Sequence record: MH252123.1
DNA length: 64,000 nt
Direction: 5' to 3' (one strand)
Origin: Klebsiella phage ZCKP1
Shown: one piece after another, positions 8,164 through 47,009 of the stretch
How the letters are laid out: each line of letters opens with the position of its first letter
Numbering within the stretch: position 1 is the stretch's first letter
Notes under the pieces: model-generated
Seen by the model: the letters and a program-made list of their open reading frames with translations, nothing else
Told to the model about the DNA's origin: nothing
Database searches by the model: none
Translations under genes and position numbers: made by a program

Positions 8164-8185
8164 TCAGAGTATTTAGGAGGTTACA

Positions 8186-8731: not shown

Positions 8732-8770
8732 TCAGGATTAAAGATACTCTGCGTCCCACTCAATAAAACT

Positions 8771-25187: not shown

Positions 25188-25216
25188 TGACACGAAGTTT
25201 CTATATGTGTTACAAT
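25187..25216 (+). promoter_or_regulatory. sigma70-type promoter
   Basis: TTGACA 25187-25192, 18-nt spacer, TACAAT. Confidence 0.45.
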
Positions 25217-25275
25217 AATCAATATGGGAAGATCTTGCATCTTCCTTTTGGCATTATCATTACTACGAGGTTATC

Positions 25276-25983
25276 ATGGCAGCAATGACTCCACAACAGT
25301 CGGTGAGAGCCGTCTATAAGGCAGAACAGGAAATCAACTCTACCGAGAATAAAAATACCTCGGCATCTACCGTAAAGGGTGATAATGGTTTCTGTATTTT
25401 AGCAAGTGTTTATAATAGTTCAAGCGATCAATACATTCAAAACTTTAAAGCAATTACTTTCGATTCAGTCCCTGAAATAGGTGTAACTCGTGAAGCAGAT
25501 GTTACAAGTTTTCCTGTGGAATCAGGATCGGATGTAAGTGACCACGTTCAAATAAAAAACAACAGATTTAAACTTTCAGGTATAATTACCGAAACACCAA
25601 TTCGGCTTATGCGAGATCAATTATACAGTGCAGGTGTAAATGGGGCAAGGATTTCTCAAGCAATAGAATATCTAGATCAAATATTTGAGTCAAGACAACC
25701 AATAGTTCTTTTGACAGAACACAGAACTTTTGAAAATGTTATTCTCAAAGGTTATTCGTATGATTATAAATCTGAATTTGCTATGCAATTTGATTTAGAG
25801 TTTGAACAAATCCGTCTCGTTTCTAAGGCCACTACTAACGCTATTGCTGTAAAAACAGCACCAAATAAGTCAACTGGTGGTGATGTGAAAGGTCAAGTTC
25901 CATCTGGCGGTCCTAAAGTGGATAACCCAATTACAAAAAACACTGCTTCATCCACTGGAACACCAACTAATACGGGGAATTAA
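25276..25983 (+). CDS. tail/baseplate protein (position equivalent to Mu gp43)
   Basis: 235-aa ORF after TMP. Confidence 0.4.
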   Translation: MAAMTPQQSVRAVYKAEQEINSTENKNTSASTVKGDNGFCILASVYNSSSDQYIQNFKAITFDSVPEIGVTREADVTSFPVESGSDVSDHVQIKNNRFKLSGIITETPIRLMRDQLYSAGVNGARISQAIEYLDQIFESRQPIVLLTEHRTFENVILKGYSYDYKSEFAMQFDLEFEQIRLVSKATTNAIAVKTAPNKSTGGDVKGQVPSGGPKVDNPITKNTASSTGTPTNTGN

Positions 25984-25985
25984 TA

Positions 25986-26399
25986 ATGGCGACATATTCT
26001 AAGACAACCCGATCTACAAGCAATTCTGGTTATAGTGCAGTATATTTAGAAGATCATTCAACATACTTTGCGTGGTATTTGAAAACAGATGAATATCCAG
26101 ATCAAACTTATACGGTAACTTTAGATGGAGTTGATTATGACATTCGTTTAAGGTGGAACACTAGGGACGAGTCTTGGCAATGTCAAATAGGGCTATCTGG
26201 AGACGATCCAAGTATTACTTTTAAAGTTACAAATGGTTTAGATCTTCTTAAACCTTATAAATATCTTGAAAGTGTGCCAGATGGTCAATTGTATATAGTA
26301 GACACAGTTAAGATTAATGGTCGTCCTGGGTATACAACTACAGGTCGAGATAAACGTTTTGTATTGGTTTATATTGATAATAAACCTAATCAGGCGTAA
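25986..26399 (+). CDS. hypothetical tail protein
   Basis: 137-aa ORF. Confidence 0.4.
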   Translation: MATYSKTTRSTSNSGYSAVYLEDHSTYFAWYLKTDEYPDQTYTVTLDGVDYDIRLRWNTRDESWQCQIGLSGDDPSITFKVTNGLDLLKPYKYLESVPDGQLYIVDTVKINGRPGYTTTGRDKRFVLVYIDNKPNQA

Positions 26400-26408
26400 G
26401 GAGATAAT

Positions 26409-27419
26409 ATGGCAGAAAGAGAGTATACAAAAGCTCCTGCCCCTAATTTAAACAGGGCATACAAATTATTAATTGGTTCTGCCACAAATACAATACAGAA
26501 GAGAACTAAGAACTCGGCATTTAAATCTACAGTAGATTTGGATACCAAGTTAGGGACAACAGAAAAATCCTCTTCTAATTTGTATTTGTTGCAAGACCAT
26601 CAAATAACCTTCAGTATTAAGAAAGATAATAACAAAGATCCTAACCAAGCAGAGATTGTAGTTTATAACCTTTCGGATGATACTGTTAACTATATAAACC
26701 GTGGTATCCGAAATAACTTGGCTGTTGCTTTAGCGGTAGGATACGAAGGTGAAGAGTTGGTTATGATCTTCAAAGGAACTATCCAGTGGGTTAGTGATAC
26801 CTTTGACTCTGTAGACAGGAAAACTACTTTACACTGTTTGGATGGTGGTATTAACATTGCAGAAGCAAGAACAAGCCGCAGTTATCCAAAAGGAACTAAA
26901 ATCAAACGTGTTGTGACAGATTTGGTAAAGGATTTAGGGACTACAGAAGGTAATATACATGTAGACAATGACCAAACCCTGTCTTCAGCAACAGCTATGT
27001 GTGGGAACACTTCACATTACCTAGAACATATTTGTAAGAGTATTGATCACAATGTGTCAATACAAGACGGATCTGTTTATGTTACTCCACGTTCCCAAAT
27101 GTCTAGTGCACGTAGCGCCTACATTAGTCCTGAAACTGGTTTAATAGGAAGCCCAGAACCATTCCACAATGATATTAAACCTACTACAAAAGTTACCAAA
27201 TCCTCTAAGAAGGCAAAGAAACCTACAGATGGTGTTAAATTCAAATGCCAAATGAATGGTGCAATATTACCAGAAAAAACAATCTGGTTAAAAAGCCGAG
27301 ATTATGATGGTCCATTTAAAGTTGTTTCTGTTTCTCACAATGGTGATAAAGAGGGTAAAGAGTGGGTTACTGAAGTGGAGTGTGTATCCGTGTCTGAAAT
27401 AATGACTAAGGAGAAATAA
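26409..27419 (+). CDS. baseplate hub protein (P2 gpD / Mu gp44 position)
   Basis: 336 aa directly before V-like spike gene. Confidence 0.45.
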   Translation: MAEREYTKAPAPNLNRAYKLLIGSATNTIQKRTKNSAFKSTVDLDTKLGTTEKSSSNLYLLQDHQITFSIKKDNNKDPNQAEIVVYNLSDDTVNYINRGIRNNLAVALAVGYEGEELVMIFKGTIQWVSDTFDSVDRKTTLHCLDGGINIAEARTSRSYPKGTKIKRVVTDLVKDLGTTEGNIHVDNDQTLSSATAMCGNTSHYLEHICKSIDHNVSIQDGSVYVTPRSQMSSARSAYISPETGLIGSPEPFHNDIKPTTKVTKSSKKAKKPTDGVKFKCQMNGAILPEKTIWLKSRDYDGPFKVVSVSHNGDKEGKEWVTEVECVSVSEIMTKEK

Positions 27420-28153
27420 TGGATGCATTAAATTTTGTCACAGCAATGCGTGGCTTAATGACAGAACAATTAGCAGAAGTCCATACAGCCCTGCCAGTCC
27501 GTGTGACTGGCGTTAATTATGGTGCTAAAACTGTCACTTTAGAATCTATTGTTAAAAACACACGATCTAGTGAAGATGAAATAGATTACCCTACTTTTGA
27601 AGATGTTCCTTTTATGGTTAATGGGGGTGGGACAGGAAGAATCTCATTCCCTATTAAAGCTGGCGATTTAGGAACTGTTATATTTTCTGAAAGAGATCCT
27701 TCTAATGCACTGCAAACTAGTGGAGAAACCTCTTCATCATCCACTTTTATGCAGCCTTGTGGATTATACCCTATTTGTTTTATTCCCAAAATAGCTACAG
27801 GAACAGATTCAACAGAAGCTGTAGATTCTGAAAAGGTAGTTATTTCTAATAACAAAAACACGTACGCTTCTTTCGACCCTACAGGTAATATCTCAATATG
27901 GAATAGTCAAGGGATGAAAATAGATATTACTACCTCCGGTATTACTATTACAGATGGCACAGGGACTTTGGATCTAAAAGGTGGTAATTTAACTTTCAAA
28001 GGCGGCGTGGCAGATATCAATGGTCTTAAAATAGATCAGAACGGTTTGATGACAGATGGTAATGGCATCGGATTCCATACTCACACGCACACGGTTCGTA
28101 ACATTCAGAGCGGTAGCTCAAGTGCCGAGTCCTTAAAACCAACAGGAGCCTAA
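27419..28153 (+). CDS. baseplate spike (gpV-like)
   Basis: N-terminal ...VHTALPVRVTGVNYGAKTVTLE... OB-like gpV signature; C-terminal GIGFHTHTHTV. Confidence 0.55.
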   Translation: MDALNFVTAMRGLMTEQLAEVHTALPVRVTGVNYGAKTVTLESIVKNTRSSEDEIDYPTFEDVPFMVNGGGTGRISFPIKAGDLGTVIFSERDPSNALQTSGETSSSSTFMQPCGLYPICFIPKIATGTDSTEAVDSEKVVISNNKNTYASFDPTGNISIWNSQGMKIDITTSGITITDGTGTLDLKGGNLTFKGGVADINGLKIDQNGLMTDGNGIGFHTHTHTVRNIQSGSSSAESLKPTGA

Positions 28154-28154
28154 C

Positions 28155-28781
28155 ATGGGAATCCCTTTTGACTTAAAACTTGGGCCAAACAACGACCTCA
28201 TCATGGATGATGGGGATTTGGTCCTCACTACAACCAGAACAGAAATTGCAGCACAAACTCTTGGGATAACTCTGAACACGTATCGTGGGGAGTGGTTTTT
28301 AAATACTAACTTCGGTGTTCCTTACTTACAAGAGATTATTGGTGTTGCTAGAAAGAAAGATATTGTAGACAGAATATTTTTAGCAGAGATTGCCAAAAAC
28401 GTTTACATAGATACAATAAACAGTTATAAATCTGCTTATGACATGGACCAACGTTATTACTCAATGACAATTATGGTGACAGTTGGAGCAGATACAGTAA
28501 CATCTATATTCAATACTCAACCTTCTGAAGAGTTTATTTACCCTGAAGCTGGTGAAGACAATGCAGCGATCATTTGTGAAGCTTACAGTATTGTTGAGAA
28601 TTCGAATAGACTTTATCGCTTTATCAACTTTGTTGGTTTGCCACGTGATACCTACTCTACTTGGTGGAATGAATGGTCTACAGAGTCAGCAGTGGAAAGA
28701 ATCATGGTTAACGAAAAAGGTGATGCATTAGCTACAAACAATGACTTCGGTATAACAGCTATGACAGGAGTAGAAGAGTAA
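28155..28781 (+). CDS. baseplate wedge protein (gpW/gp25-like)
   Basis: DLKLGPNNDLIMDDGDLVLTT...AAQTLGITLNTYRGEWFLNTNFGVPY resembles GPW_gp25 signature. Confidence 0.5.
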   Translation: MGIPFDLKLGPNNDLIMDDGDLVLTTTRTEIAAQTLGITLNTYRGEWFLNTNFGVPYLQEIIGVARKKDIVDRIFLAEIAKNVYIDTINSYKSAYDMDQRYYSMTIMVTVGADTVTSIFNTQPSEEFIYPEAGEDNAAIICEAYSIVENSNRLYRFINFVGLPRDTYSTWWNEWSTESAVERIMVNEKGDALATNNDFGITAMTGVEE

Positions 28782-29254
28782 TGGCAGATTTAACTACGAT
28801 CAAAATTTCTGATCTTACACAAACAACCTCTGTATCTGATACAGATTTCTTTGTAACAGATCAGGCTGGAATAACAAAGAAAACTTCTTTGAAAGTACTG
28901 TTGAGTGGTGCAGGGGTAACTAGAAACCGTCTGAATGCACGGGGAACAGTAACTAGCACATTGGCATTAGACATTAGTTCAGCAGAATATTTTTCAGCAA
29001 CTTTATCTTCTGCAACGTGCACAATTAGTTTTACTAATATTCCAGTAGCAACAAATGCAGTTTTAAACTTTACTTTAGCTTTGCGTCAAGGAAGTGGTGC
29101 AAATAAAGTCGTATGGCCTTCTTCTGTAAAATGGAGTTTTGGTCGTTCCCCAGTTTTGAGTTATCGTCAAGGTGCAACAGACACTTTTGAGTTTATCAGT
29201 TATGATAATGGTGCAACTTGGACAGGTAGCTTAGTTTTAGCAGGAGTTATTTAA
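28781..29254 (+). CDS. hypothetical tail protein
   Basis: 157-aa ORF, start overlaps upstream stop. Confidence 0.4.
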   Translation: MADLTTIKISDLTQTTSVSDTDFFVTDQAGITKKTSLKVLLSGAGVTRNRLNARGTVTSTLALDISSAEYFSATLSSATCTISFTNIPVATNAVLNFTLALRQGSGANKVVWPSSVKWSFGRSPVLSYRQGATDTFEFISYDNGATWTGSLVLAGVI

Positions 29255-32130
29255 TGTCAAGAGTTAAGCACAATATTGACAACACGTTTCAGTTGATTGA
29301 AGGGTTGGTTCAGTTTTTGGAAAGAAATACTGGGCTTACCATAGATCCTACGGTTCAGCATTACATTATCAACCCACAAAACGTATTGGCGAACAACAGA
29401 CACTTTATTAACTGGACAGCGCAGGAAGGGCAACCAAACGGTGACGCTACTACCGAAGGTCAATCTGTGCTTATCACTGGTTTTGCTTATGCATATTTGG
29501 CTACAGGGGATAAAAAATATCTTGAATCTGCCGAGAAGTATTGGCAAGCCTATATAGATCACTTCTTCGGGGGCCAACCTATTCCTGATCCTCCGGCTAA
29601 ATATCGTCCCAACTGGATCATCAATGGTAAAGAACCACGTTTAGCACATTACCCTCTCACAGATGATGGGTATCCTACGCACGGTGGGTTCAAAGGTAGC
29701 ATGATGACTTGGATTAACGGAAGGACTGTTATTCCTAAAGGTGCACCACATTGGGGGGAATACTTAGATAAAGCTTGGTTTGCTTTCAATGGTAATCTTG
29801 GTTGGAACTCCGTTAACGCAACAGTTTATGCAATTAACCCAGACGGTTCAACCAACTGGAAAGAATATGGAGATCAGTGGGACGTTGAATGGATTATAGA
29901 TCGTCTAGGACGTAAAGTTGATTGGGATGGTAACATTTTATCTACAGGTCACAGCTTTGCAGAATATGGAACAGTGCAACTTAAAAATGCTTCTGTGAAC
30001 GGGGATTATAAATTCAACTATGCTACATGCAACCCTGTAGAACACGGTGGGTATCTACTTAAGCGTAATGAGATGTGGCATAACCGTCCTGTAAACGTTC
30101 CGGTAGAGTTAGGTTATCAAGATAATGCTTCCGATGCTGAAACGTGGTGGTGTGATGCAAACTACTTGATGTATCAGATTACAGGAGAGAGAAAATACTG
30201 GCTTTGCTGGCAATCTTCTTTATTGTTGTGTCAAGACTACTCAAACATCGATATGTTTGATAAATTCTTCCGTAGATCTACGTCAGCAATAATTCCTTTT
30301 ACAGATGGTATCTCTTATGATTACTCATACCCATCTACAGCAATACCTAAATATTCTCGTGACGAATTAGGATACACAGTAATTCGCCAAGATGTTTCAG
30401 CACAAACAACTCTAGAACAACAGGCAGTTTGGTTCAGAGTGGATCAGAATTCAAAACTGCGTATCGAGTTTCAAGGTGTAGATGATGCAGGGGAAGGTGT
30501 TCTTTTCCGTCCAGAGTTAGAATTAAGCAAGACTAAGAGTGAAACAGACACAGTGACATATCGTTGTGGCTTACCTCTTGGTGCAGCTAATATGACTAAG
30601 ATGGATATACCTTTATCTAGTTTTATGCGCACCGAACCTCCTGGAGGTGGTGTATATATTATTGCTGAACCTAGAATTATTGTTGACTGGGGAAGCAATA
30701 CTGTGATACAATATAAATATGCAACTGGTATTGCTGGGACAAATAGTGATCAGATAGTTTCTGCTAATATGGATTCAGATGGTGGTTTTACTGTTGGGTT
30801 TTGGTTAACACCGACTAAAACAGCCAATTTAAAATCTATTACGTATCGTTCATACGCAGATGATTTTAACATCACTATTACGGATTCCGCAGGTTGGAGA
30901 TGGTGGGCCATGTTAGAAAAAACAAATTCTGCATGGGTTACTAAAGCTTTAAGTCCTGCCGATTTCAAATTAAGCACTTGGCAACCTAATCACAATGACA
31001 CAGAGGCAAAACCTTCGTCAATAAACCTGACTGCTATTGATCAGATCAATATTGCATTGGATTCTGAACCTGCAAATGGCTTGACAGGGGCAATCGACTT
31101 TTATTGCGTTAACGATATCCCATCTTTGTATTCTTCAGCCACTGGTGATGATTACACAATGTATTTCAGGGTTACAGTTTCATCTGAAAATCCTTATACA
31201 GCAAAACTTGGAGATTGTACAATACTGGACTACAAACTTAACAGTTTGAATTATACTCCAGGAATCATTCCATTTTCCAATATCAGTGATCCTAACACAG
31301 CCTTATATGACGGTTGGCGTGGTATTCCTTACCCAGGTTATCAATACCCATCCTTATATTGTTTTAAAGGGAGAGATATTGATTGGGTTCGTATGAACAA
31401 CAGTATAGACTTTTTATATGATTCACAAATGTGGTTTTATAATAAGTTTGCCCCTGTAATGCCTGGGCCAATGGCACAAGCTTATGTTTGGGATCGTTGG
31501 GATGCTCATAAATATGGAAACAAAAATGAGTTCACAATGTATCATTGGAACGATAAAGCTTGGGATGGTTATGAAGCACGAGCATTCTTCTGTGCGTGTC
31601 ATACGGTATACGAACTAAAGCGACGAGGAGCCGAAGTTCCTGAAAAACTTTTAACAGTTTGTAAAAACTGGATCAACTACCTGAAGTGGTTCCAAGATAA
31701 CAACGAAGGAAGAACACCAACAATATTTTATCCCAACGGAGAAGTGGCTGCGCCTGTAGATGACTTTACAAGTCACATGTCTGCGCTCTTTATGGCGGGA
31801 TGTGCTATAATGGGGATGGCTGGATATGATTCAGAAATTCCTAACATTAAAATAGTAGCAGACCGCTGTTTTGAACTTATTCAGGAAAACTATATTGTTC
31901 TTGGTCCTAATCACGTTATGAATGGTTGTTGGAGTGCTGCCCCTAGACCAGACAGTGATAACGGAGTCTTCTTTGGCTTCCACGCCGGAGAGTTGTTACG
32001 TGGTTTTGGGTTGTATGCCTTATACAAAAAACTTAATCCCCAAAATGCATTACCTGTTTTGGATTCGAGCAATATTCCTGCACTTACTGTTTTGACAATG
32101 GCAAACATTAGTGTGGACGTTACCGAGTAA
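29254..32130 (+). CDS. large Trp-rich tail-associated protein (possible carbohydrate-active/depolymerase)
   Basis: 958 aa, many W/Y/N; placed between baseplate W-like and J-like genes. Confidence 0.4.
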   Translation: MSRVKHNIDNTFQLIEGLVQFLERNTGLTIDPTVQHYIINPQNVLANNRHFINWTAQEGQPNGDATTEGQSVLITGFAYAYLATGDKKYLESAEKYWQAYIDHFFGGQPIPDPPAKYRPNWIINGKEPRLAHYPLTDDGYPTHGGFKGSMMTWINGRTVIPKGAPHWGEYLDKAWFAFNGNLGWNSVNATVYAINPDGSTNWKEYGDQWDVEWIIDRLGRKVDWDGNILSTGHSFAEYGTVQLKNASVNGDYKFNYATCNPVEHGGYLLKRNEMWHNRPVNVPVELGYQDNASDAETWWCDANYLMYQITGERKYWLCWQSSLLLCQDYSNIDMFDKFFRRSTSAIIPFTDGISYDYSYPSTAIPKYSRDELGYTVIRQDVSAQTTLEQQAVWFRVDQNSKLRIEFQGVDDAGEGVLFRPELELSKTKSETDTVTYRCGLPLGAANMTKMDIPLSSFMRTEPPGGGVYIIAEPRIIVDWGSNTVIQYKYATGIAGTNSDQIVSANMDSDGGFTVGFWLTPTKTANLKSITYRSYADDFNITITDSAGWRWWAMLEKTNSAWVTKALSPADFKLSTWQPNHNDTEAKPSSINLTAIDQINIALDSEPANGLTGAIDFYCVNDIPSLYSSATGDDYTMYFRVTVSSENPYTAKLGDCTILDYKLNSLNYTPGIIPFSNISDPNTALYDGWRGIPYPGYQYPSLYCFKGRDIDWVRMNNSIDFLYDSQMWFYNKFAPVMPGPMAQAYVWDRWDAHKYGNKNEFTMYHWNDKAWDGYEARAFFCACHTVYELKRRGAEVPEKLLTVCKNWINYLKWFQDNNEGRTPTIFYPNGEVAAPVDDFTSHMSALFMAGCAIMGMAGYDSEIPNIKIVADRCFELIQENYIVLGPNHVMNGCWSAAPRPDSDNGVFFGFHAGELLRGFGLYALYKKLNPQNALPVLDSSNIPALTVLTMANISVDVTE

Positions 32131-32138
32131 GGGGTAAA

Positions 32139-34292
32139 ATGAAACAAGCTATATTTACTGTCACGCGAGACAAGAGAGTAAATGCGAGTTCATTTAACTA
32201 CACGACTGTTGATGGAACAGCAGTCGCTGGTAGAGATTATATTGCAAAATCGGGAACACTTGTGTTCCCTGATGATGCTGATTCTGCTACTATTGTGGTT
32301 GAAGTATTTGAACGACCAAAGAACTCAATAGATCTTAACTTCTCCCTCCAAGTTTCAGGGATTAGTCAAAATAACATGATGGTTGAAACAACCATCAATT
32401 GTATTATAACTACTATCCAAGAAAATACTACTCCAATAACTTGGACTACAAAAGACGTTAAAATGTTCTCTCCTATGTATTGGACAATAGATTCTCAAGC
32501 AACGGAAAGTTGTTCTATTGTATCTCATGGAGACTCTTTTACTGCAAGATTTGTAAACAGAACAACAGCAGGTTTGGCAGGGGTTATCTGGAGCACAGTT
32601 GACAAATATGACCATAAAGGTGTTGGGTATTTGCCTCACACAGATTTAAGTTCAGAGAAACTTTGGTTTAAAATGGAAATTAGTCAAAACATGCCAGGTT
32701 TTAAAGAAGAACCTTTGGTGCCGACTTTGACTGTAACTCTCCTGGATAAAAGTGTTCATTATGTCAGTTTAGGATTCTACGCTTCAGATATTTCAGAAGA
32801 TGGTAAAACAGCTACAATCAAGTTAGATTTTGGTAATATCTTTTCTGGCCCTAATAATGATATTCCTTTGGATATGAGTGCTGTAGATAATATTTTCTTC
32901 TCTTTGATTACAGCAAGGTATGAAGAAATAGAAGAGGTTGTACCTATTGACAGTCAAGAGGCTTGGTTTACTTTCACTCTTCTTGAACCTACCTCTGGTT
33001 ACAGTATGATGAAAGTCAGCAACCTTGTCCAGCCTGAACATGATATTCGCATGTGCACATCTTATGATGATATGTATAACCTGACTCCAGAGAGAGTTAT
33101 TTATAATACATATGCACTAGGTTATCGTGGGATGATTAACCATTACAATGGAATGTCTCACTATTATGAGTTCTCATGGAACGGAACATCTTGGGCTTTA
33201 AATAGATCTGTCTTCCTGAATCCAGCTACAGAAGCTTGGCTTAACAGTTTCCATTCTATAGCTAATGAAAATGGCTACACAATAATGAACTCTTTGAGTT
33301 TTGAGTTGATGAGCACAGTTTGTCCTGTAGAATGGGTCCAGCATGATTGGAACGATGCTCTTGCAGCAACAGGGTATGAACCTCCTAGTTATGTGTTGTC
33401 TCCAACTATTGACGAAGGTATGGAATATTTGCAAAATGTTATTAATAAAATAGCATCTATTTCGCAAGCTAATAATATTCCAGTTGTCATTCAAATTGGT
33501 GAGCCTTGGTGGTGGTATAATACAGCAAGTAAAATGCCTTGCATATATGATTACACTACCAAACTGGCATTCAACACAGAAACAGGTTTATTTGCACAAG
33601 ATGCAGGAACAATAGATAATTATAAAACAGGAACGCCGTTTGACGAATACTATGCATTTTTGTCTCGTAAACTAGGATTAAGAGTTACAAAGTTTGCAAC
33701 AGATACTAGAGCAACTTACCCAGGAGCCAAGGTAACATTGCTTCCGTTCTTACCGTCAATTATTGGCAACGGTTTGATGGAGAAAGTTAACTTTCCGTCT
33801 GATTACTACATTCCTGAAACTTTTGATTTTTACTGTTCAGAGTGTTACGACTGGCTTCTGGAAGGTAAAATGATGAAAGCATTCGATGCAATTACCATAC
33901 CACATGAAAAATTAGGTTTTGAATATTCTAATATTCACTATCTTTCGGGTTTTGTTCCAGATGCTACTCTTGCACCTTTGTATGGCTTCAGTCCTGAATC
34001 AAACTACCGCACGTATCTTTGGAAAATGATTATAGGTAATATAGTGTTGAACGCCAATAAGTTCAATGGGCTTACACAATATATATGGGCCTATCCTCAA
34101 ATAATGCATGATTCCATCACGGTAGTTAATTCTCAATCCCAAGTTTTCTATATGGGTAATGTGCCTTTGAATTGTTATTTACAGGATATCACTCTTAAAC
34201 AGGTAAATGTTGAGATTGCCACCATAAGTGGAATTACATTAGCCACTAAATCTGGAGAAGATTTAGTAACAACACAAAAATTTTATATATAG
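32139..34292 (+). CDS. large tail protein
   Basis: 717 aa ORF. Confidence 0.4.
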   Translation: MKQAIFTVTRDKRVNASSFNYTTVDGTAVAGRDYIAKSGTLVFPDDADSATIVVEVFERPKNSIDLNFSLQVSGISQNNMMVETTINCIITTIQENTTPITWTTKDVKMFSPMYWTIDSQATESCSIVSHGDSFTARFVNRTTAGLAGVIWSTVDKYDHKGVGYLPHTDLSSEKLWFKMEISQNMPGFKEEPLVPTLTVTLLDKSVHYVSLGFYASDISEDGKTATIKLDFGNIFSGPNNDIPLDMSAVDNIFFSLITARYEEIEEVVPIDSQEAWFTFTLLEPTSGYSMMKVSNLVQPEHDIRMCTSYDDMYNLTPERVIYNTYALGYRGMINHYNGMSHYYEFSWNGTSWALNRSVFLNPATEAWLNSFHSIANENGYTIMNSLSFELMSTVCPVEWVQHDWNDALAATGYEPPSYVLSPTIDEGMEYLQNVINKIASISQANNIPVVIQIGEPWWWYNTASKMPCIYDYTTKLAFNTETGLFAQDAGTIDNYKTGTPFDEYYAFLSRKLGLRVTKFATDTRATYPGAKVTLLPFLPSIIGNGLMEKVNFPSDYYIPETFDFYCSECYDWLLEGKMMKAFDAITIPHEKLGFEYSNIHYLSGFVPDATLAPLYGFSPESNYRTYLWKMIIGNIVLNANKFNGLTQYIWAYPQIMHDSITVVNSQSQVFYMGNVPLNCYLQDITLKQVNVEIATISGITLATKSGEDLVTTQKFYI

Positions 34293-34300
34293 GAGTAAAA

Positions 34301-36538
34301 ATGTCAACTACAATTACTAATTTACCCGAAACATCAAAAGTTAATGGTTCAGATTACCTGGTTTTAGATCAACCTGATAAAACTGTTAAAAGCACAGTTT
34401 CCAACTTTCTTACTGACACTGGGGTGGTTTTAGCCACCCAGTTGAAAGATACAGATGGAGCAGATTTAATACAATCCTCAAATGGTAATACTGTTCAGGA
34501 AGAGTTGAATAACAATCTTCTTAATGATCGTGAACAGTGGCGTCGTAGTCTTGCTGAAGCGGGGTTAACACTTGTTGATGGTAGCTTTGAGGATGGTGCT
34601 ACATTAAATAATAATACTGATGCTGTTTGGTATATTGCAGGTGGACAGTGCTATACATGGGGTGGTGCTTTCCCTAAAGCTGTTCCCGCTGACTCAACCC
34701 CTACATCAACCGGTGGTATTGGTCTGGGTGCGTGGGTTAGCGTTGGAGATGCAACGCTTAGGCGGGAGTTAGCGTCAATTACTGGTCAGTTACTCGTAGG
34801 TTCTGCACGCCATCTGGACGACCTGCGCGGTATATTTCCTGGGGTCAGCAGCAGAATAAAAACGCTGGGGGCACTGGCTGCATATGATGGCGGAGGAGAC
34901 ACTTGGGTATTTGACCCGTCAGATATGAGCAGTCTGGTATCCCTCTACCCTAAAATATTTATCGCACCAACAACAGACCCATCAGGGGCTTCTGGGGCAT
35001 GGAAACTAGCATGGAATATGAAAGGCATTAATGCCTCTGCATACGGGATAGGGTTGAGCAAATCTTACTCACATGACACTGAAGCCCTACAGCAACTTGG
35101 TGACTGGAATAAAGCGATTCAGTGGATAAACCTTCCATCAGAGATGTATATCACTGAACTTAACTATACAGAAAACCCAAAATTTTATGGAATTGCTGGC
35201 GCAAATAGCGACCTGTCAGATACGCGCGGGATGGGATCCCGTGAGCATGGTTCTATTATTTATGCCAGAGATGCTGATTCTTCTAATCCAGTTATACACA
35301 TACATGGCAACCCTGGAACTGATAGACTTGGTGGTGTAGATATTTGCTATGTTTCTGTAGTAAGTGTCGATTTGATAGAAAACAGAAATTTAACCATTAA
35401 ACCGGAATTAAACCAAAGAAGCACAAGAACAGCTGTATTCCTGGAATATATAGCCTCAAAAACAAACATACAAGGTCTTGGAATTTTCGGCTTTAAAAAG
35501 TGCCTGTATGGGAATGAGGTTTGGGATGGTTCAATCCGCGATTTGGCTATAAGCATCGGGTCTGATGAAAATGGAACCGAACCAGCCGTGTTTTTTGGTT
35601 CATATGGTTCAGACAATTCTAACAACTTGACTATAGACACATTCCGTATTGAGCACTGCCCATACTCCCTTGAGGTTGATTTTGTAGACCACGTAAGATT
35701 TGTTAATGGCAAGATTGAAACGTATAGAAAACCGGATGCTACACATCATGTTGTTAAAGTTGGCAGCAAGGCAGAGAGGTATCTATTCTCAGGTGTGATG
35801 TTTGTAACCAACCCAACTACAGAAACCCCTTATCTGTATGAGCAAGGCAAGCAGGGTACTTATTCATCTTGCTGGATGACAGTAGGGGGAATCGCTGGCA
35901 ATTATCCAGGTGTTCGTTGGATTTACAGGGACCCAACCGGAACATCAGTAGTCAAGTTTATGGGCATGACAATAAACGGCCCAATGCAAGCTGATGGTAC
36001 GGATCCTACTGCATATCCTATCTACCTTGCCAGTTATGACGAGTTTGGTGGAACCATTAACTGCTACGATTCTTTTACCGTTAATGGCTCGGTAGTTAAC
36101 CCATCATATCAGGGGTTGATTTGCATGAACACCGGGACAAAGATGGGTAAACTGCACATAAACACCAACAACATAACAAAAACAGCGGGGACTGTATTTT
36201 ATGCAAGAGGGGGTGATTATGACATTGGCAAGCCAACACTAGCCGGTGCACCACATAGTCTGCTTGCTGGCGTTAAGAATGATATCAGAAAAATGATAAC
36301 CTCTGCGTCTGATATAGAAATATACCGACGCGAGACTATTTTATTAAGTCCAGGGACAACATTGAACTCAATGACGGGATTTGAGGGGCAGGTTATCCGC
36401 GTTATGACATTTGGCACCGGATGCATAATAAAACATTCAGGTCGGATAAATAACTCATCAGGCACTGATATTTCAATGACAGCAAATACGGTTTACACAT
36501 ATATGATGCTGACCGGCACAACTGCAAAACAAATTTAA
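34301..36538 (+). CDS. tailspike protein (beta-helix type)
   Basis: N-terminal MSTTITNLPETSKVNGSDYLVLDQ; Gly/Asn-rich beta-helix-like body; C-terminal two thirds on higher-GC DNA. Confidence 0.5.
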   Translation: MSTTITNLPETSKVNGSDYLVLDQPDKTVKSTVSNFLTDTGVVLATQLKDTDGADLIQSSNGNTVQEELNNNLLNDREQWRRSLAEAGLTLVDGSFEDGATLNNNTDAVWYIAGGQCYTWGGAFPKAVPADSTPTSTGGIGLGAWVSVGDATLRRELASITGQLLVGSARHLDDLRGIFPGVSSRIKTLGALAAYDGGGDTWVFDPSDMSSLVSLYPKIFIAPTTDPSGASGAWKLAWNMKGINASAYGIGLSKSYSHDTEALQQLGDWNKAIQWINLPSEMYITELNYTENPKFYGIAGANSDLSDTRGMGSREHGSIIYARDADSSNPVIHIHGNPGTDRLGGVDICYVSVVSVDLIENRNLTIKPELNQRSTRTAVFLEYIASKTNIQGLGIFGFKKCLYGNEVWDGSIRDLAISIGSDENGTEPAVFFGSYGSDNSNNLTIDTFRIEHCPYSLEVDFVDHVRFVNGKIETYRKPDATHHVVKVGSKAERYLFSGVMFVTNPTTETPYLYEQGKQGTYSSCWMTVGGIAGNYPGVRWIYRDPTGTSVVKFMGMTINGPMQADGTDPTAYPIYLASYDEFGGTINCYDSFTVNGSVVNPSYQGLICMNTGTKMGKLHINTNNITKTAGTVFYARGGDYDIGKPTLAGAPHSLLAGVKNDIRKMITSASDIEIYRRETILLSPGTTLNSMTGFEGQVIRVMTFGTGCIIKHSGRINNSSGTDISMTANTVYTYMMLTGTTAKQI

Positions 36539-36549
36539 TGAGGTGAACT

Positions 36550-36840
36550 ATGTCATTTAAATTAGCAAAAACATTCACGGCCAATCTGACAACAGATACG
36601 GGTATGAATCTTGGACAAGAGCAGGTTACGGTAGATGTAACCTGTACCATCGCCATGATTACCATTACCCCTGACGGTACAGCCAGGGCTACTATTACGT
36701 CATCGGTAGGTGACGGCACGCCTGTCCAGACAGATATTTTTGAGTTCAGCTACTCAATGTCATCTGGTGTCGGTATATATGAACAAGCATTGGCAGAGAT
36801 ACTGGCGAGTGAGAAGTATACAGGGGCTGTTGCTGGATAA
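36550..36840 (+). CDS. hypothetical protein
   Basis: 96-aa ORF with RBS GAGGTG. Confidence 0.35.
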   Translation: MSFKLAKTFTANLTTDTGMNLGQEQVTVDVTCTIAMITITPDGTARATITSSVGDGTPVQTDIFEFSYSMSSGVGIYEQALAEILASEKYTGAVAG

Positions 36841-36857
36841 AAAAGGTGAGCGAGTCT

Positions 36858-37016
36858 ATGGGCGACCTTAGTACCCGACTTAAACGGGTAGAGGAGAGCA
36901 TCACTAAGTCTGAACCTACCATCGAAGAGTTCATTACCATTAAACATAAAGTTGCTGGTGCTGGAATTTTTGGCAAGTGGGCATGGGCTGTAGCAGGTGC
37001 AAATGGGCTTCATTAA
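36858..37016 (+). CDS. small hydrophobic-tailed ORF (not in the supplied track)
   Basis: AAGGTGA RBS 8 nt before ATG; 52 codons ending GAGIFGKWAWAVAGANGLH. Confidence 0.2.
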   Translation: MGDLSTRLKRVEESITKSEPTIEEFITIKHKVAGAGIFGKWAWAVAGANGLH

Positions 37017-37193
37017 GGTTCACACAAGCTATGTCCTGCAAGCGCATGTCATCGCCATGTGATAAAATGATGAAAACATATCGTAGCAGGGTTAATCTTG
37101 TCTTTAGTTACTATCGTACTAACTCAAAGTGTTGTCACTACCACTGCAAGCCCCTCCAAAGAGGGGCTTACTTAGAAAAACAAAGAGGTTGTT

Positions 37194-37502
37194 ATGAACG
37201 AAATGTTCTCCCAAGGTGGTAAAGGTTCAACCGGAATCTTAACCAATAAACAAGCAGTAGCCCGTCACTTTGGAGTTAAACAATCTGAGGTTGTTTACTT
37301 CTCAGTTGGTGTGGATTTGGGTGGGTATAAGGTTATCTATGACAAGGAGACGCAAAGGGCGTATTCCCTACCTGCTGATATTGCCCCAGGTACTACTGCC
37401 ATTAGTCTTAGTGCTGCTGTACTTGTGCATTCAGCGGGTTCTGTAGACCTTGGGGAATTAGCTGTATATCGTGATTTAAAAAGTAATGAGAACGCACCAT
37501 GA
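37194..37502 (+). CDS. hypothetical protein
   Basis: 102-aa ORF, RBS AGAGG. Confidence 0.4.
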   Translation: MNEMFSQGGKGSTGILTNKQAVARHFGVKQSEVVYFSVGVDLGGYKVIYDKETQRAYSLPADIAPGTTAISLSAAVLVHSAGSVDLGELAVYRDLKSNENAP

Positions 37503-37741
37503 GAAAGTTTTTAATCGGAATGTTTTGTACTTATCCAAACAACAAAATCAGTTCTACTAAAGTGTGGAACGCACTGGGAATGCTAACCATGACAGGCATG
37601 TTTATCTTTTTAGGAATAGAAAAAGAAATTCCTGAATGGATGGGTTGGGCTTTTGTTTTCATGATAACTCCTTCTCGCCTCATGAAAAATCTTATTGATT
37701 TACGCTGGGGCAGATCACAATCTACCAAAGAGGATGACTAA
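37499..37741 (+). CDS. small two-TM membrane protein
   Basis: hydrophobic segments LTMTGMFIFLGI and WMGWAFVFMITP; overlapping start/stop with neighbours. Confidence 0.4.
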   Translation: MRKFLIGMFCTYPNNKISSTKVWNALGMLTMTGMFIFLGIEKEIPEWMGWAFVFMITPSRLMKNLIDLRWGRSQSTKEDD

Positions 37742-39228
37742 TGGACGAATATGGTTTGACAGATGCGGGATTTGTAATCCCGACTTTTGATGATGTTTTA
37801 AACAACTACATGACAGCAGTAAAAAACACATTTGGTGCAGATGCAGCCACTTCGGAAGATACTGTGATCGGACAACTGTTTAGAATAATTGCATACACAG
37901 ATTACACATTGTGGGAAGGTATGCAAGGGGTTTATAATACTCAAACACTGGATGGTGCAGAAGGTATTTATCTTGATGAAATCTTTTCTAAACGTGGTTT
38001 CTATCGAGCAGGGGCGGCAGCAAGTACAGGTTATGCATATGTTAAAAGTAATAACAAAGCAGCTTGGACTTACGAGTTAGGCACAGATATTTACTTCAAC
38101 TCTGATAGCGATATGAACTACTATGTTAGCACACCAACTATGTTGAATGCTAAGATTGCAGCTTATCAAATTTCTCGTGCTAATGCAACTGCTACAGGTG
38201 TTCCAAATATTACCTTTTATGCACAAAGTGCGATAGATGGAGGACTAAACAGTAAAACACTTGCACCTGGTTCTTCTACATTTATAGCCGATCTTGAAAC
38301 TTTTATCAAGGCAAACTTAACAGAGGCTGATCGTAGTCTTGTATTTTCTGATTCTGGTAACTTGTCAATTGGTTTTACTTCTTTAACCAGTGATACTCCA
38401 GTGGGACTAGTAACTCCTATCAAATTTTATGCTAGTGTTCCAGTTGGAACCAAATGGAGTGAAATTCCGGTAGTTGCAGCAGAGAAAGGATACAATCCGG
38501 TGGGTGTGGAGTCTATTACAGGGATATCTTCTACCTTTACAGGTTATCTTGATAGTGGTAACTTCTATTCGTTTTCTCCTGGTCGAGATGTTGAGACAGA
38601 TGCAGAATTCCGCTCTCGTTTCAATGACAACGTTGATGAAGCTAACGCAGGGACACGAGCAGCTATTGTGAAAGCACTGTTGCTTACCGATGGTGTTACC
38701 AAGGTGAAGATTTATGATAACCCTACGTTACATGATCAAGAACACGCTCCAGCTATGACTTTCCAGACTATAGTTTATGGAGGGAGTGCTGAAGAAGTTG
38801 CTGAAGTTATTTACAAAACTAAACCAATCAACAGTTTGACACATGGAACAACCAACATAACTGTTACAACAGAAGACGGAGGACAAGAAATTATTCGTTT
38901 TTCTCCTGGTGCTTCTGCTACGTATTCCGTAAAACTTGTTTATCAAACTGTCAACGGAACAACTTTAAGTGGAACAGAAAAACAAAACATTGTAGAAGCT
39001 TTACAAAACCTGCAAGCTTACTTTGAATTAGGTTCTTCAGTAACGAACGATCAAATCAAAGGTGTTATTTATGCAGCACTTGCTTTTGGACGCTTGACTT
39101 CTCTTCGTGTTTATGTTAAACTTAATACTGAGGATGACAGTAAATATACAGAGAATAATATAGTTCCTGCTTATAATGTTGTCCCTTCTTTTGACCTTGA
39201 TAATATTTCTTACGAGTATGGAGTGTAA
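37741..39228 (+). CDS. baseplate protein J-like
   Basis: 495 aa; followed directly by I-like gene and fiber. Confidence 0.5.
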   Translation: MDEYGLTDAGFVIPTFDDVLNNYMTAVKNTFGADAATSEDTVIGQLFRIIAYTDYTLWEGMQGVYNTQTLDGAEGIYLDEIFSKRGFYRAGAAASTGYAYVKSNNKAAWTYELGTDIYFNSDSDMNYYVSTPTMLNAKIAAYQISRANATATGVPNITFYAQSAIDGGLNSKTLAPGSSTFIADLETFIKANLTEADRSLVFSDSGNLSIGFTSLTSDTPVGLVTPIKFYASVPVGTKWSEIPVVAAEKGYNPVGVESITGISSTFTGYLDSGNFYSFSPGRDVETDAEFRSRFNDNVDEANAGTRAAIVKALLLTDGVTKVKIYDNPTLHDQEHAPAMTFQTIVYGGSAEEVAEVIYKTKPINSLTHGTTNITVTTEDGGQEIIRFSPGASATYSVKLVYQTVNGTTLSGTEKQNIVEALQNLQAYFELGSSVTNDQIKGVIYAALAFGRLTSLRVYVKLNTEDDSKYTENNIVPAYNVVPSFDLDNISYEYGV

Positions 39229-39230
39229 AA

Positions 39231-39860
39231 ATGGCAGTGAGTGTTGACCATGTAACAACTTGGGCCAGTATCAATGAAGATGTTAAAAACCTTCTGATTG
39301 AAGATTTTAAATCTTCTCCTAACATTGTCAAGCTCCTCTACATCGTATCCAGTGAAAAGCAAAAGATAGATCAGGCAATGATCTATCTTGCTAAACACCG
39401 CTTGATCTCTACAGCCACAGGCAAATACCTAGATATTCTAGGGGAAGAAATGGGGATCGAACGTAATGGCTCTGATGATGAAGAGTATAGAACAATATTA
39501 AAAATCAGGGCTTACCGCGTAGCCTCCTCTGGGACTCGTGGTGACATAATTGATATCTTCGCCCGTTTCACAGGAACAGAGCGTGAAACGCTTAATACTT
39601 ACGTAGGTTTGAATAAAACCTTTGATGTGTTTTTCTACAACCTGTGTCTTCAATCTGATCAAGCTTTAGAGCAGTTGCTAAGTGTTTTCCCTATTATTAG
39701 TAGCTACCGTCTTGGAGCAAAAGCAGGATCAGCTTTTGGTTTTAGTTCTTATTATGCTACCAAACCGCCTCATGGTATTGGTGGTTTAGGTTCCCTGTAC
39801 ATGGAATCTACTGGGGATGAAACAGGACGCATGTGTACGCTTCTCAAGCAAATAGATTAA
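39231..39860 (+). CDS. tail protein I-like (DUF2313 type)
   Basis: 209 aa; position after J-like gene. Confidence 0.5.
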   Translation: MAVSVDHVTTWASINEDVKNLLIEDFKSSPNIVKLLYIVSSEKQKIDQAMIYLAKHRLISTATGKYLDILGEEMGIERNGSDDEEYRTILKIRAYRVASSGTRGDIIDIFARFTGTERETLNTYVGLNKTFDVFFYNLCLQSDQALEQLLSVFPIISSYRLGAKAGSAFGFSSYYATKPPHGIGGLGSLYMESTGDETGRMCTLLKQID

Positions 39861-39869
39861 GGAGTTTAA

Positions 39870-40931
39870 ATGGCGAAGCCAATATATTATCCTGACTGGG
39901 CTACACAAACTGTAACGCTCCCAGGAACTTTAAACACAAACAAAATTAGACCTAAAGAAACCATCCGCACAGTTGGTATGGATTATGGTCAAATCATGAC
40001 TTGCGAAGAAATGAACTGGATTCTTAATAATATCGGTTTATGGATTCGCTATTTGGTGGATGACTTTCTTCCAACTTTACCTGATACTTACTTGCCTTTA
40101 GTTGGAACTAAGATTACAATGGCAGGTGATGCTACTGGTGAGGCTACTTGGAACGGTGATAAAGAAGTTATTTTATCTATCCAAGTTCAAGATAATAGTC
40201 ATAATCACTTGTCGGCAAACATTACAGATGCTACTAGTTCAATAGTAACACCAAATGTGTTGGTAAAACGTGATGCAGGTGGTGCTATTTATGGTGGTGA
40301 TGTTTATGTTAATGGTACTTCCACAACAGATCCTGCAACCCTGTTTTTCAAGAACTTTGCAGGACAGACTAATGGTGAGATTTCTGCCGAATACCAAAGT
40401 GGAGGTCAGCTTTATATTTATCGTAGAAATCCTAGCACAGGTAGTGTAGCCGCAGGTGTTCGTTTATATGATGCAGGTTATGTTCTAATAGACAATCCAA
40501 GATCAAACAATGGACAAGACACTTCTAACGGAAATGCCTTGGTTCGCTTAGATTATCTGAATTCTCGTTTGACTTCTCTTCAGAACACATTGCAAACGAA
40601 TATTAATACTGTTCAAAACAACCTGAATAGTGTTAACAGCAACCTCTCTTCCCGTATAAACAATGTAGAAAGTAATCATCAAAGTCAGATTACAAATAAC
40701 TACAACTATGCTAATGGAACCTTTGTAAGAGATATTCGTTACACTAGCCAAGGTGTGTATTATCCACCAGGGAACGAAGTTTCTTGGACTTATATCTGTT
40801 CTTCTGGTTATGTTCTTTCTGGTATTATTGTTCAGGAAACAGGTCGTAGTTCTGCGGATAACATTGGTGGGGTTTACTTCAAACGCCTCCAGCGCAACGT
40901 TAACGGAAACTGGTACGATATTGGAGGCTAA
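39870..40931 (+). CDS. tail fiber protein
   Basis: 353 aa, Asn/Ser/Gln-rich repeats LNSVNSNLSSRINNVESN; follows J/I genes. Confidence 0.5.
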   Translation: MAKPIYYPDWATQTVTLPGTLNTNKIRPKETIRTVGMDYGQIMTCEEMNWILNNIGLWIRYLVDDFLPTLPDTYLPLVGTKITMAGDATGEATWNGDKEVILSIQVQDNSHNHLSANITDATSSIVTPNVLVKRDAGGAIYGGDVYVNGTSTTDPATLFFKNFAGQTNGEISAEYQSGGQLYIYRRNPSTGSVAAGVRLYDAGYVLIDNPRSNNGQDTSNGNALVRLDYLNSRLTSLQNTLQTNINTVQNNLNSVNSNLSSRINNVESNHQSQITNNYNYANGTFVRDIRYTSQGVYYPPGNEVSWTYICSSGYVLSGIIVQETGRSSADNIGGVYFKRLQRNVNGNWYDIGG

Positions 40932-41477
40932 ATGATATTTACAAATTTTAAAAAGTATATTCCTGAAGACCCTGAACTAAAAGAATTGGTAGAAGTAGAG
41001 AACATTCTTTTCCTTCGTTGTGATCAAGGTTACGATTGGTATGATTTACGTAGCACAGAATTCAATAACGATAAAATGAAAGTCGTTTTTGATGATCAAA
41101 ATCGTATTGTGTTTTGGAATACTGATCCTACACTACTTTGCCCTGAAGATCTTTCTATAGCACAAGTAGACTTTAATATAGATACTTTTGAGGATATTAG
41201 GAACAAGGTTTTGGATTTAGAAACCTTAACTCTTAAGGATAAAGAGTATTCCCGTGAAGAGTTGATGACACAAGCTAGTGCAAAGATTCGCTCTTTACAA
41301 GAGACAGCGGTAGCACTTATAACACCTTTACAATATGCTAAAGATTTAGAAATGGCTACTGAAGATGAATTAGCTTATCTTAAAAATCTTCAAGTTTATG
41401 TGGTTAAACTAAACCGTGTTCCGCTTCAAAAAAACTATCCTTACACTATAGATTGGCCTACATTACCGACGGAATAA
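40932..41477 (+). CDS. tail fiber assembly protein (Tfa-like)
   Basis: 181 aa directly after fiber gene. Confidence 0.45.
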   Translation: MIFTNFKKYIPEDPELKELVEVENILFLRCDQGYDWYDLRSTEFNNDKMKVVFDDQNRIVFWNTDPTLLCPEDLSIAQVDFNIDTFEDIRNKVLDLETLTLKDKEYSREELMTQASAKIRSLQETAVALITPLQYAKDLEMATEDELAYLKNLQVYVVKLNRVPLQKNYPYTIDWPTLPTE

Positions 41478-41486
41478 GGGATCACT

Positions 41487-41822
41487 ATGGAATTTCAAGA
41501 AGCATGGGGACTTGCAAAGGATGCAATCATCCCTTTAATCGGAGTCATCTGGTTCTTTTTCAAACAAAAAATGGATAAATTCGGCTCTGATCTTGAGGAA
41601 ATGGAGGAGAAAAGTCGAGAGCTAGAGAAGAAGTTGGTCTTTGTTGAATCAACTTATGCAACTAAAGCCGAACTTACCCAGATGCTAAATCAAATTAACT
41701 CTACATTAATGGCAAATAATAACACTCTTGAGCAAAAGATTGAAAAGATTATGGACCTCAAGAATGCTACTATTCAAATGATGCTAGATGACATAGTTAA
41801 ACGTACACAGAATAAGGGGTAA
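41487..41822 (+). CDS. single-TM coiled-coil membrane protein (possible T4 t-like holin)
   Basis: N-terminal TM AIIPLIGVIWFFF followed by coiled coil; located after tail fiber/Tfa genes as T4 t is. Confidence 0.35.
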   Translation: MEFQEAWGLAKDAIIPLIGVIWFFFKQKMDKFGSDLEEMEEKSRELEKKLVFVESTYATKAELTQMLNQINSTLMANNNTLEQKIEKIMDLKNATIQMMLDDIVKRTQNKG

Positions 41823-41825
41823 TTA

Positions 41826-44879: not shown

Positions 44880-44887
44880 TGGAAATA

Positions 44888-44915
44888 GAGAGGGGGAATC
44901 CCCCTCTTTTTCCAA
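44888..44915 (+). terminator. rho-independent terminator
   Basis: AGAGGGGGaatCCCCCTCT followed by TTTTTCC. Confidence 0.65.
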
Positions 44916-44943
44916 TAGAATGGTCTAATAATAGGAGAGATAA

Positions 44944-46968: not shown

Positions 46969-46969
46969 C

Positions 46970-46996
46970 AGAAGCCCCGAAAGGGGCTTTCTTTTT
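46970..46996 (+). terminator. rho-independent terminator
   Basis: AGCCCCgaaaGGGGCT followed by TTCTTTTTAT. Confidence 0.65.
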
Positions 46997-47009
46997 ATGG
47001 AGGGTTTAA

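Follow-up and report, generated by a model that had tools for sequence, protein, structure and literature searches.

The window analysed here is a 64,000-nucleotide (nt) stretch of the genome of Klebsiella phage ZCKP1 (MH252123.1), a published phAPEC8-like myovirus (PMC6141743, PMC6563267) for which Klebsiella pneumoniae was used for isolation and which forms plaques with haloes (PMC6141743). Its tail genes include a block of about 9 kilobases (kb) between a W/gp25-like baseplate gene, ending at 28781, and a J-like baseplate gene, starting at 37741; open reading frames (ORFs) of 157, 958, 717 and 745 amino acids (aa) and several small genes lie there just as a first-pass annotation had placed them. 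That annotation regarded the block as a horizontally acquired host-range cassette. Our comparisons retain this interpretation for one segment, indicating that only 34753–37002 (~2.25 kb) has been replaced, and withdraw it for the remainder of the block. The segment comprises the body of a tailspike, a 96-aa gene that follows it and the remnant of a third gene. The features of the locus are the following:

28155–28781, + strand: W/gp25-like baseplate protein, 208 aa (phrog_120, baseplate wedge subunit, E = 4.8e-20; phrog_4233, E = 4e-79); left border of the block
28781–29254, + strand: small fibre-like protein, 157 aa (phrog_9017, tail fiber protein, E = 2.7e-68)
29254–32130, + strand: tail protein, 958 aa (phrog_2871, tail protein, 1562 bits)
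32139–34292, + strand: receptor-binding-type protein, 717 aa (PF23845, PF23844, PF03160)
34301–36538, + strand: whole tailspike gene, 745 aa (PF18668)
34301–34752, + strand: conserved 5′ part of the tailspike gene, aa 1–150 (particle-binding N-terminus and PF18668 adaptor); left homology arm
34753–36538, + strand: exchanged tailspike body, aa 151–745; predicted polysaccharide-binding or depolymerase module
36550–36840, + strand: 96-aa gene travelling with the tailspike body (phrog_7836)
36837–37002, + strand: remnant of a gene similar to N4 gp63 (94% identity to Gamaleyavirus PhAPEC5)
37003–37193, + strand: conserved non-coding stretch with a hairpin and a ribosome-binding site; right homology arm
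37194–37502, + strand: orphan docking-domain stub, 102 aa (phrog_18484 positions 1–95, E = 5.5e-46)
37499–37741, + strand: membrane protein, 80 aa (phrog_1322, membrane protein, E = 1.9e-26; likewise annotated in relatives)
37741–39228, + strand: J-like baseplate wedge protein, 495 aa (PF04865, Baseplate_J, 34.8 bits; phrog_6, E = 2.4e-43); right border of the block
In other sequences, directly after a tailspike homologue: homologues of the 96-aa gene (L006 8168–8461; L008 5254–5550; L016–L019 7001–7291)

The tailspike gene and its exchanged body

A megablast search with 25200–47000 (21.8 kb) returned 64 phage records spanning 80% or more of this region at 96–98% identity. The matching records that were inspected are classed as Phapecoctavirus, with Justusliebigvirus among the more distant matches, and by this comparison the window is part of a Phapecoctavirus genome. 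Identity to members of the genus is 96.5–98% over 25200–34752 and again over 37021–47000. For the segment between them (34753–37002), no DNA match was found in any of the 64 records, and most of it (34850–36836) has no similar DNA in 50,697 deposited phage records.

The left edge of the segment falls inside the 745-aa tailspike gene, whose product is exactly YP_009803404.1, annotated as "tail spike protein" of ZCKP1 and not analysed in the published papers on this phage (PMC6141743, PMC6563267). Its 5′ part has 88–93% DNA identity to relatives up to 34744–34758, where homology ends in most of them (at 34461 in phAPEC8); this breakpoint falls where the PF18668 adaptor domain (aa 93–150; 71.4 bits against a cut-off of 25) ends. 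Left and right breakpoints pair as 34752/37021, 34744/37036 and 34461/37516 in individual relatives. At the protein level, similarity to other Stephanstirmvirinae spikes stops at aa 152–185 (tblastn), and sequence matches in the PDB cover only aa 75–168 (TSP1, TSP3 and TSP4 of phage CBA120 and other tailspike or tail fibre chains; 4oj5, 5w6f, 5w6h). Exchange of spike bodies at conserved 5′ ends has been documented experimentally in Ackermannviridae (PMC11414711), and a framework for multi-fibre loci and exchange guided by N-terminal domains has been published (PMC8594841, PMC13450770, PMC11414711).

The body itself (aa 151–745) has no match in Pfam and no sequence match in the PDB; PF18668 is the only Pfam domain in the protein (E <= 0.01). 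The closest deposited phage proteins share 45% (a Raoultella phage) and 30% (a Klebsiella phage) identity with it, and the family amounts to only 22 clusters among 5.8 billion proteins, its copies having differing N-termini. The ratio of nonsynonymous to synonymous substitution rates (dN/dS) of the body is 0.08–0.10. Likeness to the endosialidases phi92 gp143 and phAPEC8 gp095 was not found in the body, the phAPEC8 match stopping at 34461, and Pfam detected no C-terminal intramolecular chaperone domain, which is annotated in phi92 gp143, in the 745-aa protein.

A monomer model of the body is rich in β-strands and has a tailspike-type (β-helix type) fold, with a predicted local distance difference test score (pLDDT) mostly of 85–95 from aa ~320 to 745. 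Foldseek matched it to TSP3, TSP1, TSP2 and TSP4 of CBA120 (probability 1.0, E = 5e-7 to 1e-5), and to capsule depolymerases of Acinetobacter and Klebsiella phages (Depo32, 7vz3; K2-2 TSP, 8iq5; AS12 gp42, 6eu4; Fri1 gp49, 6c72; E = 2.5e-4 to 1e-3). Five acidic residues of the body (E406, D409, D438, E451 and E473) are invariant and are candidate catalytic residues.

The arrangement of a PF18668 adaptor followed by a tailspike-fold body is shared with two branched tailspike systems, CBA120 TSP1–4 and gp63.1/gp66 of phage G7C, and the 102-aa stub of the window matches the first ~95 positions of tailspike families. The systems differ in that the body is only 10–13% identical to the solved spikes, the docking domain is here an orphan ORF, and the backbone belongs to a different phage subfamily from CBA120 (Ackermannviridae) and G7C (Gamaleyavirus). 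The resemblance to the Klebsiella and Acinetobacter capsule depolymerases is at the level of the fold, without sequence similarity, although the relatives of the body are mostly from Klebsiella and Raoultella.

Base composition changes along with the homology. The first-pass annotation had described a rise in G+C content (GC) to 50–55% at about 34.7–37.2 kb, covering the C-terminal two thirds of the tailspike. A rise is present there, and the tailspike does take part in it; its level is 43.9% (both for 34700–37200 and for 34753–37002), compared with 39.6% for the window and 38.8% for 28781–34752, and it extends over four fifths of the tailspike (aa 151–745). Within 34700–37200, 20% of 60-nt windows reach 50% GC or more (mean 43.7%), against 5.7% outside; in 300-nt windows the sole stretch near 51% is 34600–35049. 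Among all 2250-nt windows, 34753–37002 ranks in the top 0.5% (z = 2.26); the maximum (44.4%) belongs to windows starting at 34401–34801, and near-rivals at 16.4 kb and 42.5–44.5 kb reach 43.4–43.6%. Because the stretch holds only ~28 independent windows of that size, this rank taken by itself says little.

The stronger compositional signal is GC at third codon positions (GC3), which is 0.384 in the tailspike body and 0.412 in the 96-aa ORF, compared with 0.253 in the conserved codons 1–150 of the tailspike. Most neighbouring genes have values of 0.20–0.35, and the small 80- and 111-aa ORFs also reach 0.38–0.39. The GC3 step coincides with the recombination breakpoints. The sliding-window and codon-usage check proposed in the first-pass annotation thus shows that GC is not uniform, with a difference of only ~4 points and a clearer step in GC3.

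The other stretch of above-average GC in the window, 41826–46968, encodes a colanic-acid spike (1017 aa, 42.6% GC) and a collagen-like fibre (674 aa, 43.1% GC). These two genes, unlike the exchanged module, have low GC3 (0.26–0.31); both products also bear regions resembling tailspike N-terminal adaptors, according to their PHROG matches.

The linked 96-aa gene and the right junction

The 96-aa gene starts 11 nt after the tailspike stop codon and accompanies the body in other genomes. Together they form a module (34784–36844), of which two unrelated phage backbones (52% and 42% GC) hold copies at 82–84% DNA identity. One backbone is a ~45-kb contig that encodes tape measure, DUF1833 and DNA polymerase A; the other is a pig-gut contig carrying a baseplate-wedge gene. 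Both of these closest copies carry, directly 3′ of the spike, an ORF of 97–98 aa whose product is 80–84% identical to that of the window.

The first-pass annotation had suggested a comparison of the body with prophage tailspikes, which was carried out. Relatives are present in the chromosomes of Klebsiella and Raoultella, where they stand last in siphovirus-type tail modules (putative prophages); the body there has 51–59% protein identity and the small ORF, ~12 nt downstream of the tailspike homologue, 77–86%; no relative was found in E. coli genomes by DNA comparison. An E. coli prophage origin of the exchanged segment was considered separately and is not supported, since E. coli complete genomes contain no DNA similar to 34750–37025, even when searched in distant mode.

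The GC of the module is 43–45% in backbones of 52%, 42% and 39% GC, and 49–50% in the chromosomal versions. The module thus keeps its own GC, which explains the local rise and supports a mobile module with a composition of its own.

The 96-aa family consists of 26 clusters, all 71–88% identical, and is more conserved than the spike body. Its dN/dS of 0.09–0.14 indicates purifying selection and is like that of the body, so the ORF is taken to be a real gene. The product has no Pfam match, and the only family it hits is phrog_7836, annotated as of unknown function. It is a candidate trans-acting partner of the spike, for example an assembly factor.

Immediately downstream lies a remnant of a gp63-like gene that covers ~aa 39–88 of 111, with the start and 27 aa at the C-terminus missing. 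PhAPEC5 gp69, located in that phage directly downstream of two tail spike genes, shares 94% identity with it. The phapecoctavirus backbone resumes at a sharp junction (37002/37003), and the remnant appears to be the footprint of an exchange between Schitoviridae and Stephanstirmvirinae. On the right side, the breakpoints of relatives lie at different positions (36877, 36995, 37003, 37021, 37036, 37245, 37379 and 37516), a staggered pattern that fits repeated, independent exchanges.

The conserved non-coding stretch that follows (37003–37193) is 95–99% identical in phapecoctaviruses and 95.7% identical in Gamaleyavirus U1G. It contains a GC-rich hairpin with a 9-base-pair stem and no T-run (37149–37170; AAGCCCCTC-caaa-GAGGGGCTT), situated 24 nt upstream of the start codon of the 102-aa stub. 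A promoter and terminator scan of 34000–38000 gave a site count not above that of shuffled sequence.

The stub is 79% identical to aa 1–95 of the 712-aa PhAPEC5 tail protein gp68, up to 92% identical to the N-terminal parts of tailspikes annotated in phages of ~157 kb and ~72 kb, and 43% identical to aa 230–302 of the window's own colanic-acid spike; these matches suggest that the 102-aa ORF is an N-terminal docking domain without a body. A 107-aa stub in U1G (L004 5001–5515) shares 81% identity with it, and U1G also holds a 90.7% copy of 37003–37346. Many phapecoctaviruses have the stub, with at least 66 intact variants of 102 aa in one cluster; phAPEC8 and phi92 lack it, and in ECGD1 it is reduced to a 49-aa ORF. 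Comparison with near-identical copies (4–5 differences) gives no informative dN/dS; the value of 0.22 against a diverged stub is only suggestive, because the divergence may predate the truncation. The possibility that this ORF is the head of a second full-length tailspike was rejected for the Stephanstirmvirinae relatives inspected, as iGC_PHA_EC001, Ro121c4YLVW and EF1-1 likewise have a stub of ~100 aa.

The conserved adsorption locus

Phage phi92 is said to carry a multivalent adsorption apparatus encoded by gp139–gp151, in work attributed to Schwarzer and colleagues in 2012. In the phi92 GenBank record, gene order is collinear with that of the window from the W-like gene through the collagen-like fibre gene. 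The two share gp139 (W-like), gp140 (157 aa), gp141 (958 aa), gp142 (719 aa, compared with 717 aa here), the membrane protein gp144, the wedge proteins gp145 (495 aa) and gp146 (209 aa), the fibre gp147, Tfa (gp148), a lipoprotein (gp149), a colanidase (gp150) and a second fibre (gp151). They differ in the variable slot, which in phi92 encodes the endosialidase gp143, unrelated in sequence to the tailspike body of the window, and in the 96-aa gene, the gp63-like remnant and the 102-aa stub, all three of which are carried by the window phage and none by phi92. By this gene-for-gene correspondence to phi92 gp139–gp145, the block appears to be the first half of a multivalent adsorption-apparatus locus.

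Loci of this type have been published under the names "multivalent adsorption apparatus" and "nanosized Swiss army knife" (PMC8594841, PMC11984140, PMC13450770), the latter in Vequintavirinae and relatives (PMC8594841). Cryo-electron microscopy of phi92 identified gp139 as the sheath initiator and gp145 and gp146 as the wedge, gp145 being the wedge protein that carries fibres I and III, and gp143 was inferred to be the distal part of fibre I (PMC13450770). The presence of several fibre and spike types on one virion has been shown for phi92 only (PMC13450770).

The 157-, 958- and 717-aa genes (28781–34752) have 97–98% DNA identity to other phapecoctaviruses and an ordinary composition (36.6–40.3% GC). 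Three annotated phapecoctaviruses that were compared (Ro121c4YLVW, phAPEC8 and EF1-1) have matching genes in matching order, so that the first-pass proposal of a block inserted between the W-like and J-like genes is not borne out: other phapecoctaviruses and phi92 share the order and the sizes of the three genes. The synteny comparison it recommended found these genes shared and the spike slot differing between relatives. In a Vequintavirus, lateral fibre genes take up ~12.7 kb between W and J, and in the more distant Pseudomonas phage PAK_P1 J follows directly after W, which makes fibre genes at this position an old trait of the rV5/phAPEC8/phi92 group.

The W/gp25-like protein itself varies in length (208 aa here, 211 aa in phi92, 238 aa in a Vequintavirus and about 123–124 aa in PAK_P1), and the PAK_P1 homologue matches only aa 6–108 of the window's protein. 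The extra C-terminal ~100 aa could be a docking site for the added fibres.

The products of the three conserved genes are probably fibre components with glycan-binding or glycosidase-like folds. The 157-aa protein has a counterpart of equal size and place in phAPEC8, Ro121c4YLVW, EF1-1 and phi92 (gp140), and a sequence search of solved structures gave no meaningful match to it. The 958-aa protein has no Pfam match and no meaningful PDB match by sequence or profile. Its AlphaFold model (pLDDT 86.8) shows a split helical barrel resembling (α/α)6 glycoside hydrolases (GH) and central β-sandwiches like those of carbohydrate-binding modules (CBM). Foldseek gave partial matches to GH48, GH105, GH8-like, GH116, GH144 and CBM11/CBM22 structures (E = 1e-3 to 1e-5) with low whole-chain template-modelling (TM) scores; with TMt values of 0.24–0.44 for GH48, GH105 and GH8-like folds and 0.54–0.56 for CBM11, the likeness is at domain level only. 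On the model, a glycan-directed role is plausible.

The 717-aa protein, a conserved and not an exchanged part of the locus, combines N-terminal Calx-beta (PF03160, 42.4 bits) with NCTSP_N and TIM-barrel domains similar to those of N4 gp65 and gp64 (PF23845, 265 bits against a cut-off of 27; PF23844, 59.7 bits), both well above the Pfam cut-offs. PDB matches are to N4 gp64 (9lc0_M, E = 3.9e-30) and to the N4 non-contractile tail sheath (9lc0_I, E = 5.6e-12). It differs from N4 gp65 in being half its length, in possessing Calx-beta and in occurring on a contractile-tailed phage. In an SU10-like podophage contig, a 1557-aa protein (P0120; L015 6001–10674) has a region like the 958-aa protein fused to NCTSP_N and TIM-barrel domains. 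To judge from this fusion, the two proteins of the window may act together in a single fibre.

Two further observations concern the tRNA cluster of the window. A ~0.7-kb insert (8053–8764), which phAPEC8 lacks, matches two non-adjacent parts of pYLMB57c, a ColE1-type E. coli plasmid of 2.6 kb, at 97% identity. The first part encodes a HigA-family antitoxin (ORF 8128–8526, 132 aa) without its RelE/ParE toxin, and the second contains an RNAI region (8629–8730; Rfam RF00106, 63.2 bits); Salmonella phage SE2 is the only deposited phage with a comparable piece (88%). The insert may have been captured as an anti-toxin/anti-plasmid element, or it may be an assembly chimera. Rfam also predicts an eleventh tRNA (7440–7524, 39 bits) that ARAGORN does not report; the phAPEC8 annotation has a tRNA-Tyr at this relative position, between tRNA-Ser and tRNA-Asn, and the feature may be a degraded or atypical tRNA.

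Spike exchange and host range

We consider it highly probable that the locus is a known multi-fibre locus into which a tailspike body and its 96-aa gene have recombined, and that this most likely conferred the Klebsiella range. The 745-aa gene occupies the one hypervariable slot of the locus, where phi92 and phAPEC8 have an endosialidase. Residues 1–150 are the conserved anchor and adaptor, which would plug the spike into a baseplate fibre, and the spike would trimerise on this N-terminus at the position of phi92 gp143. The tailspike-fold module (aa 151–745) would bind, and probably cleave, capsule or O-antigen. The left crossover falls where the adaptor domain ends; on the right, the gp63-like remnant marks the limit of the segment and is followed by the conserved sequence upstream of the orphan docking stub. 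We infer that the transfer ran into the phapecoctavirus backbone. Because the relatives of the module are mostly in chromosomes and phages of Klebsiella and Raoultella, the swap most likely gives a phage of E. coli type its Klebsiella range, and it probably explains growth on Klebsiella.

Several observations weigh against this account. The Foldseek matches of the body have whole-chain TM scores of 0.2–0.4 at 10–13% identity, so that substrate and catalytic mechanism are not readable from the model. ZCKP1 produced lysis zones on 15 of 21 K. pneumoniae isolates, and also on 5 of 18 Proteus mirabilis and 9 of 30 E. coli isolates (PMC6141743); other glycan-directed fibres of the phage could account for part of this range. 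The closest copies of the module are in metagenomic phages, and the pairing of body and small gene is not absolute: Raoultella phage VB_ZK_P1 has a body at 45% identity without the small ORF, and Drulisvirus SKP1 has the small ORF at 45% identity after a tail fibre gene without a detectable body match. The GC difference is small, and the raised GC runs on into the conserved backbone (37003–37500).

Other explanations were considered for the extent and the composition of the segment. That the whole of 28781–37740 is a recent host-range island between the W and J genes is extremely improbable: W and J are adjacent in PAK_P1, so fibre genes were intercalated at some past point, but 28781–34752 is nearly identical to its counterparts in phapecoctaviruses, collinear with phi92 gp140–gp142 and of backbone GC, and Vequintaviruses hold their own fibre genes at the same place. 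It is also very unlikely that the GC rise is a by-product of β-strand-rich tailspike composition, or chance, with no foreign origin. The rise is indeed only ~4 points, its maximum is not rare among so few independent windows, and the colanic-acid spike and collagen-like fibre genes are raised as well, through high GC at first and second codon positions. In the exchanged segment, however, third positions carry the rise, with GC3 above that of the 5′ part of the same gene and of the other spike and fibre genes; the rise also matches the recombination breakpoints, and the module holds its GC in backbones of 52% and 42%.

The function and the source of the module allow more latitude. It could be a non-enzymatic adhesin that binds a glycan or protein receptor and has no depolymerase activity, as some β-helix tailspikes bind without cleaving, no catalytic residues have been identified, and the body lacks any Pfam or PDB sequence match; we regard this as unlikely, given that tailspikes and capsule depolymerases give the best matches to its fold, that the strand-rich body has five invariant acidic residues, and that ZCKP1 plaques have haloes (PMC6141743), though the colanic-acid spike could cause haloes too. 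As to the donor, an N4-like podophage of Gamaleyavirus type, with body, 96-aa gene and gp63 in that order, may have been the immediate source, the chromosomal copies then being distant cousins. Consistent with this, the gp63-like remnant stands directly after the 96-aa gene, gp63 follows tailspike genes in Gamaleyaviruses, U1G has its copy of 37003–37346, and the stub resembles the N-terminus of PhAPEC5 gp68. Yet no Gamaleyavirus with this body was found among deposited phages, neither of the two closest module copies is in an N4-like contig (tape measure and DUF1833 in one, baseplate wedge in the other), and phapecoctavirus vB_Ec-G1 also has a gp63-like piece (86%), so the scar may predate this body. 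On balance we think such a donor less likely than not.

Joining these elements to the exchange of the tailspike body, a broader proposal may be offered as speculation that we think rather improbable as a whole: the 96-aa gene would be a dedicated partner of the spike in a two-gene mobile module, with stub and adaptor as landing pads. The partner might be a detached folding or trimerisation factor, in the role of the cleaved C-terminal chaperone domain of endosialidase spikes. The module would move among contigs that differ in their sets of tail genes (baseplate genes of myoviruses, tail genes of siphovirus type) and perhaps also among podophages, and the 102-aa stub and the adaptor would let phapecoctaviruses capture the spike modules of other phage families.

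The 9-kb block itself adds nothing new, being a published locus of the phi92/phAPEC8 type; neither its architecture nor the mechanism of exchange is novel, and an annotated genome is already public. The addition made here is modest: one tailspike body family, uncharacterised so far, and a linked small gene, with exact breakpoints and a plausible explanation of the host of ZCKP1. The family is small (22 clusters) and without a solved structure or Pfam model, and the tightly linked 96-aa gene is a candidate accessory factor. A single 2.25-kb module with exact breakpoints and natural homology arms provides the facts needed for host-range engineering in a therapeutically used phage group, and it most likely retargets a 150-kb myovirus of E. 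coli type to Klebsiella.

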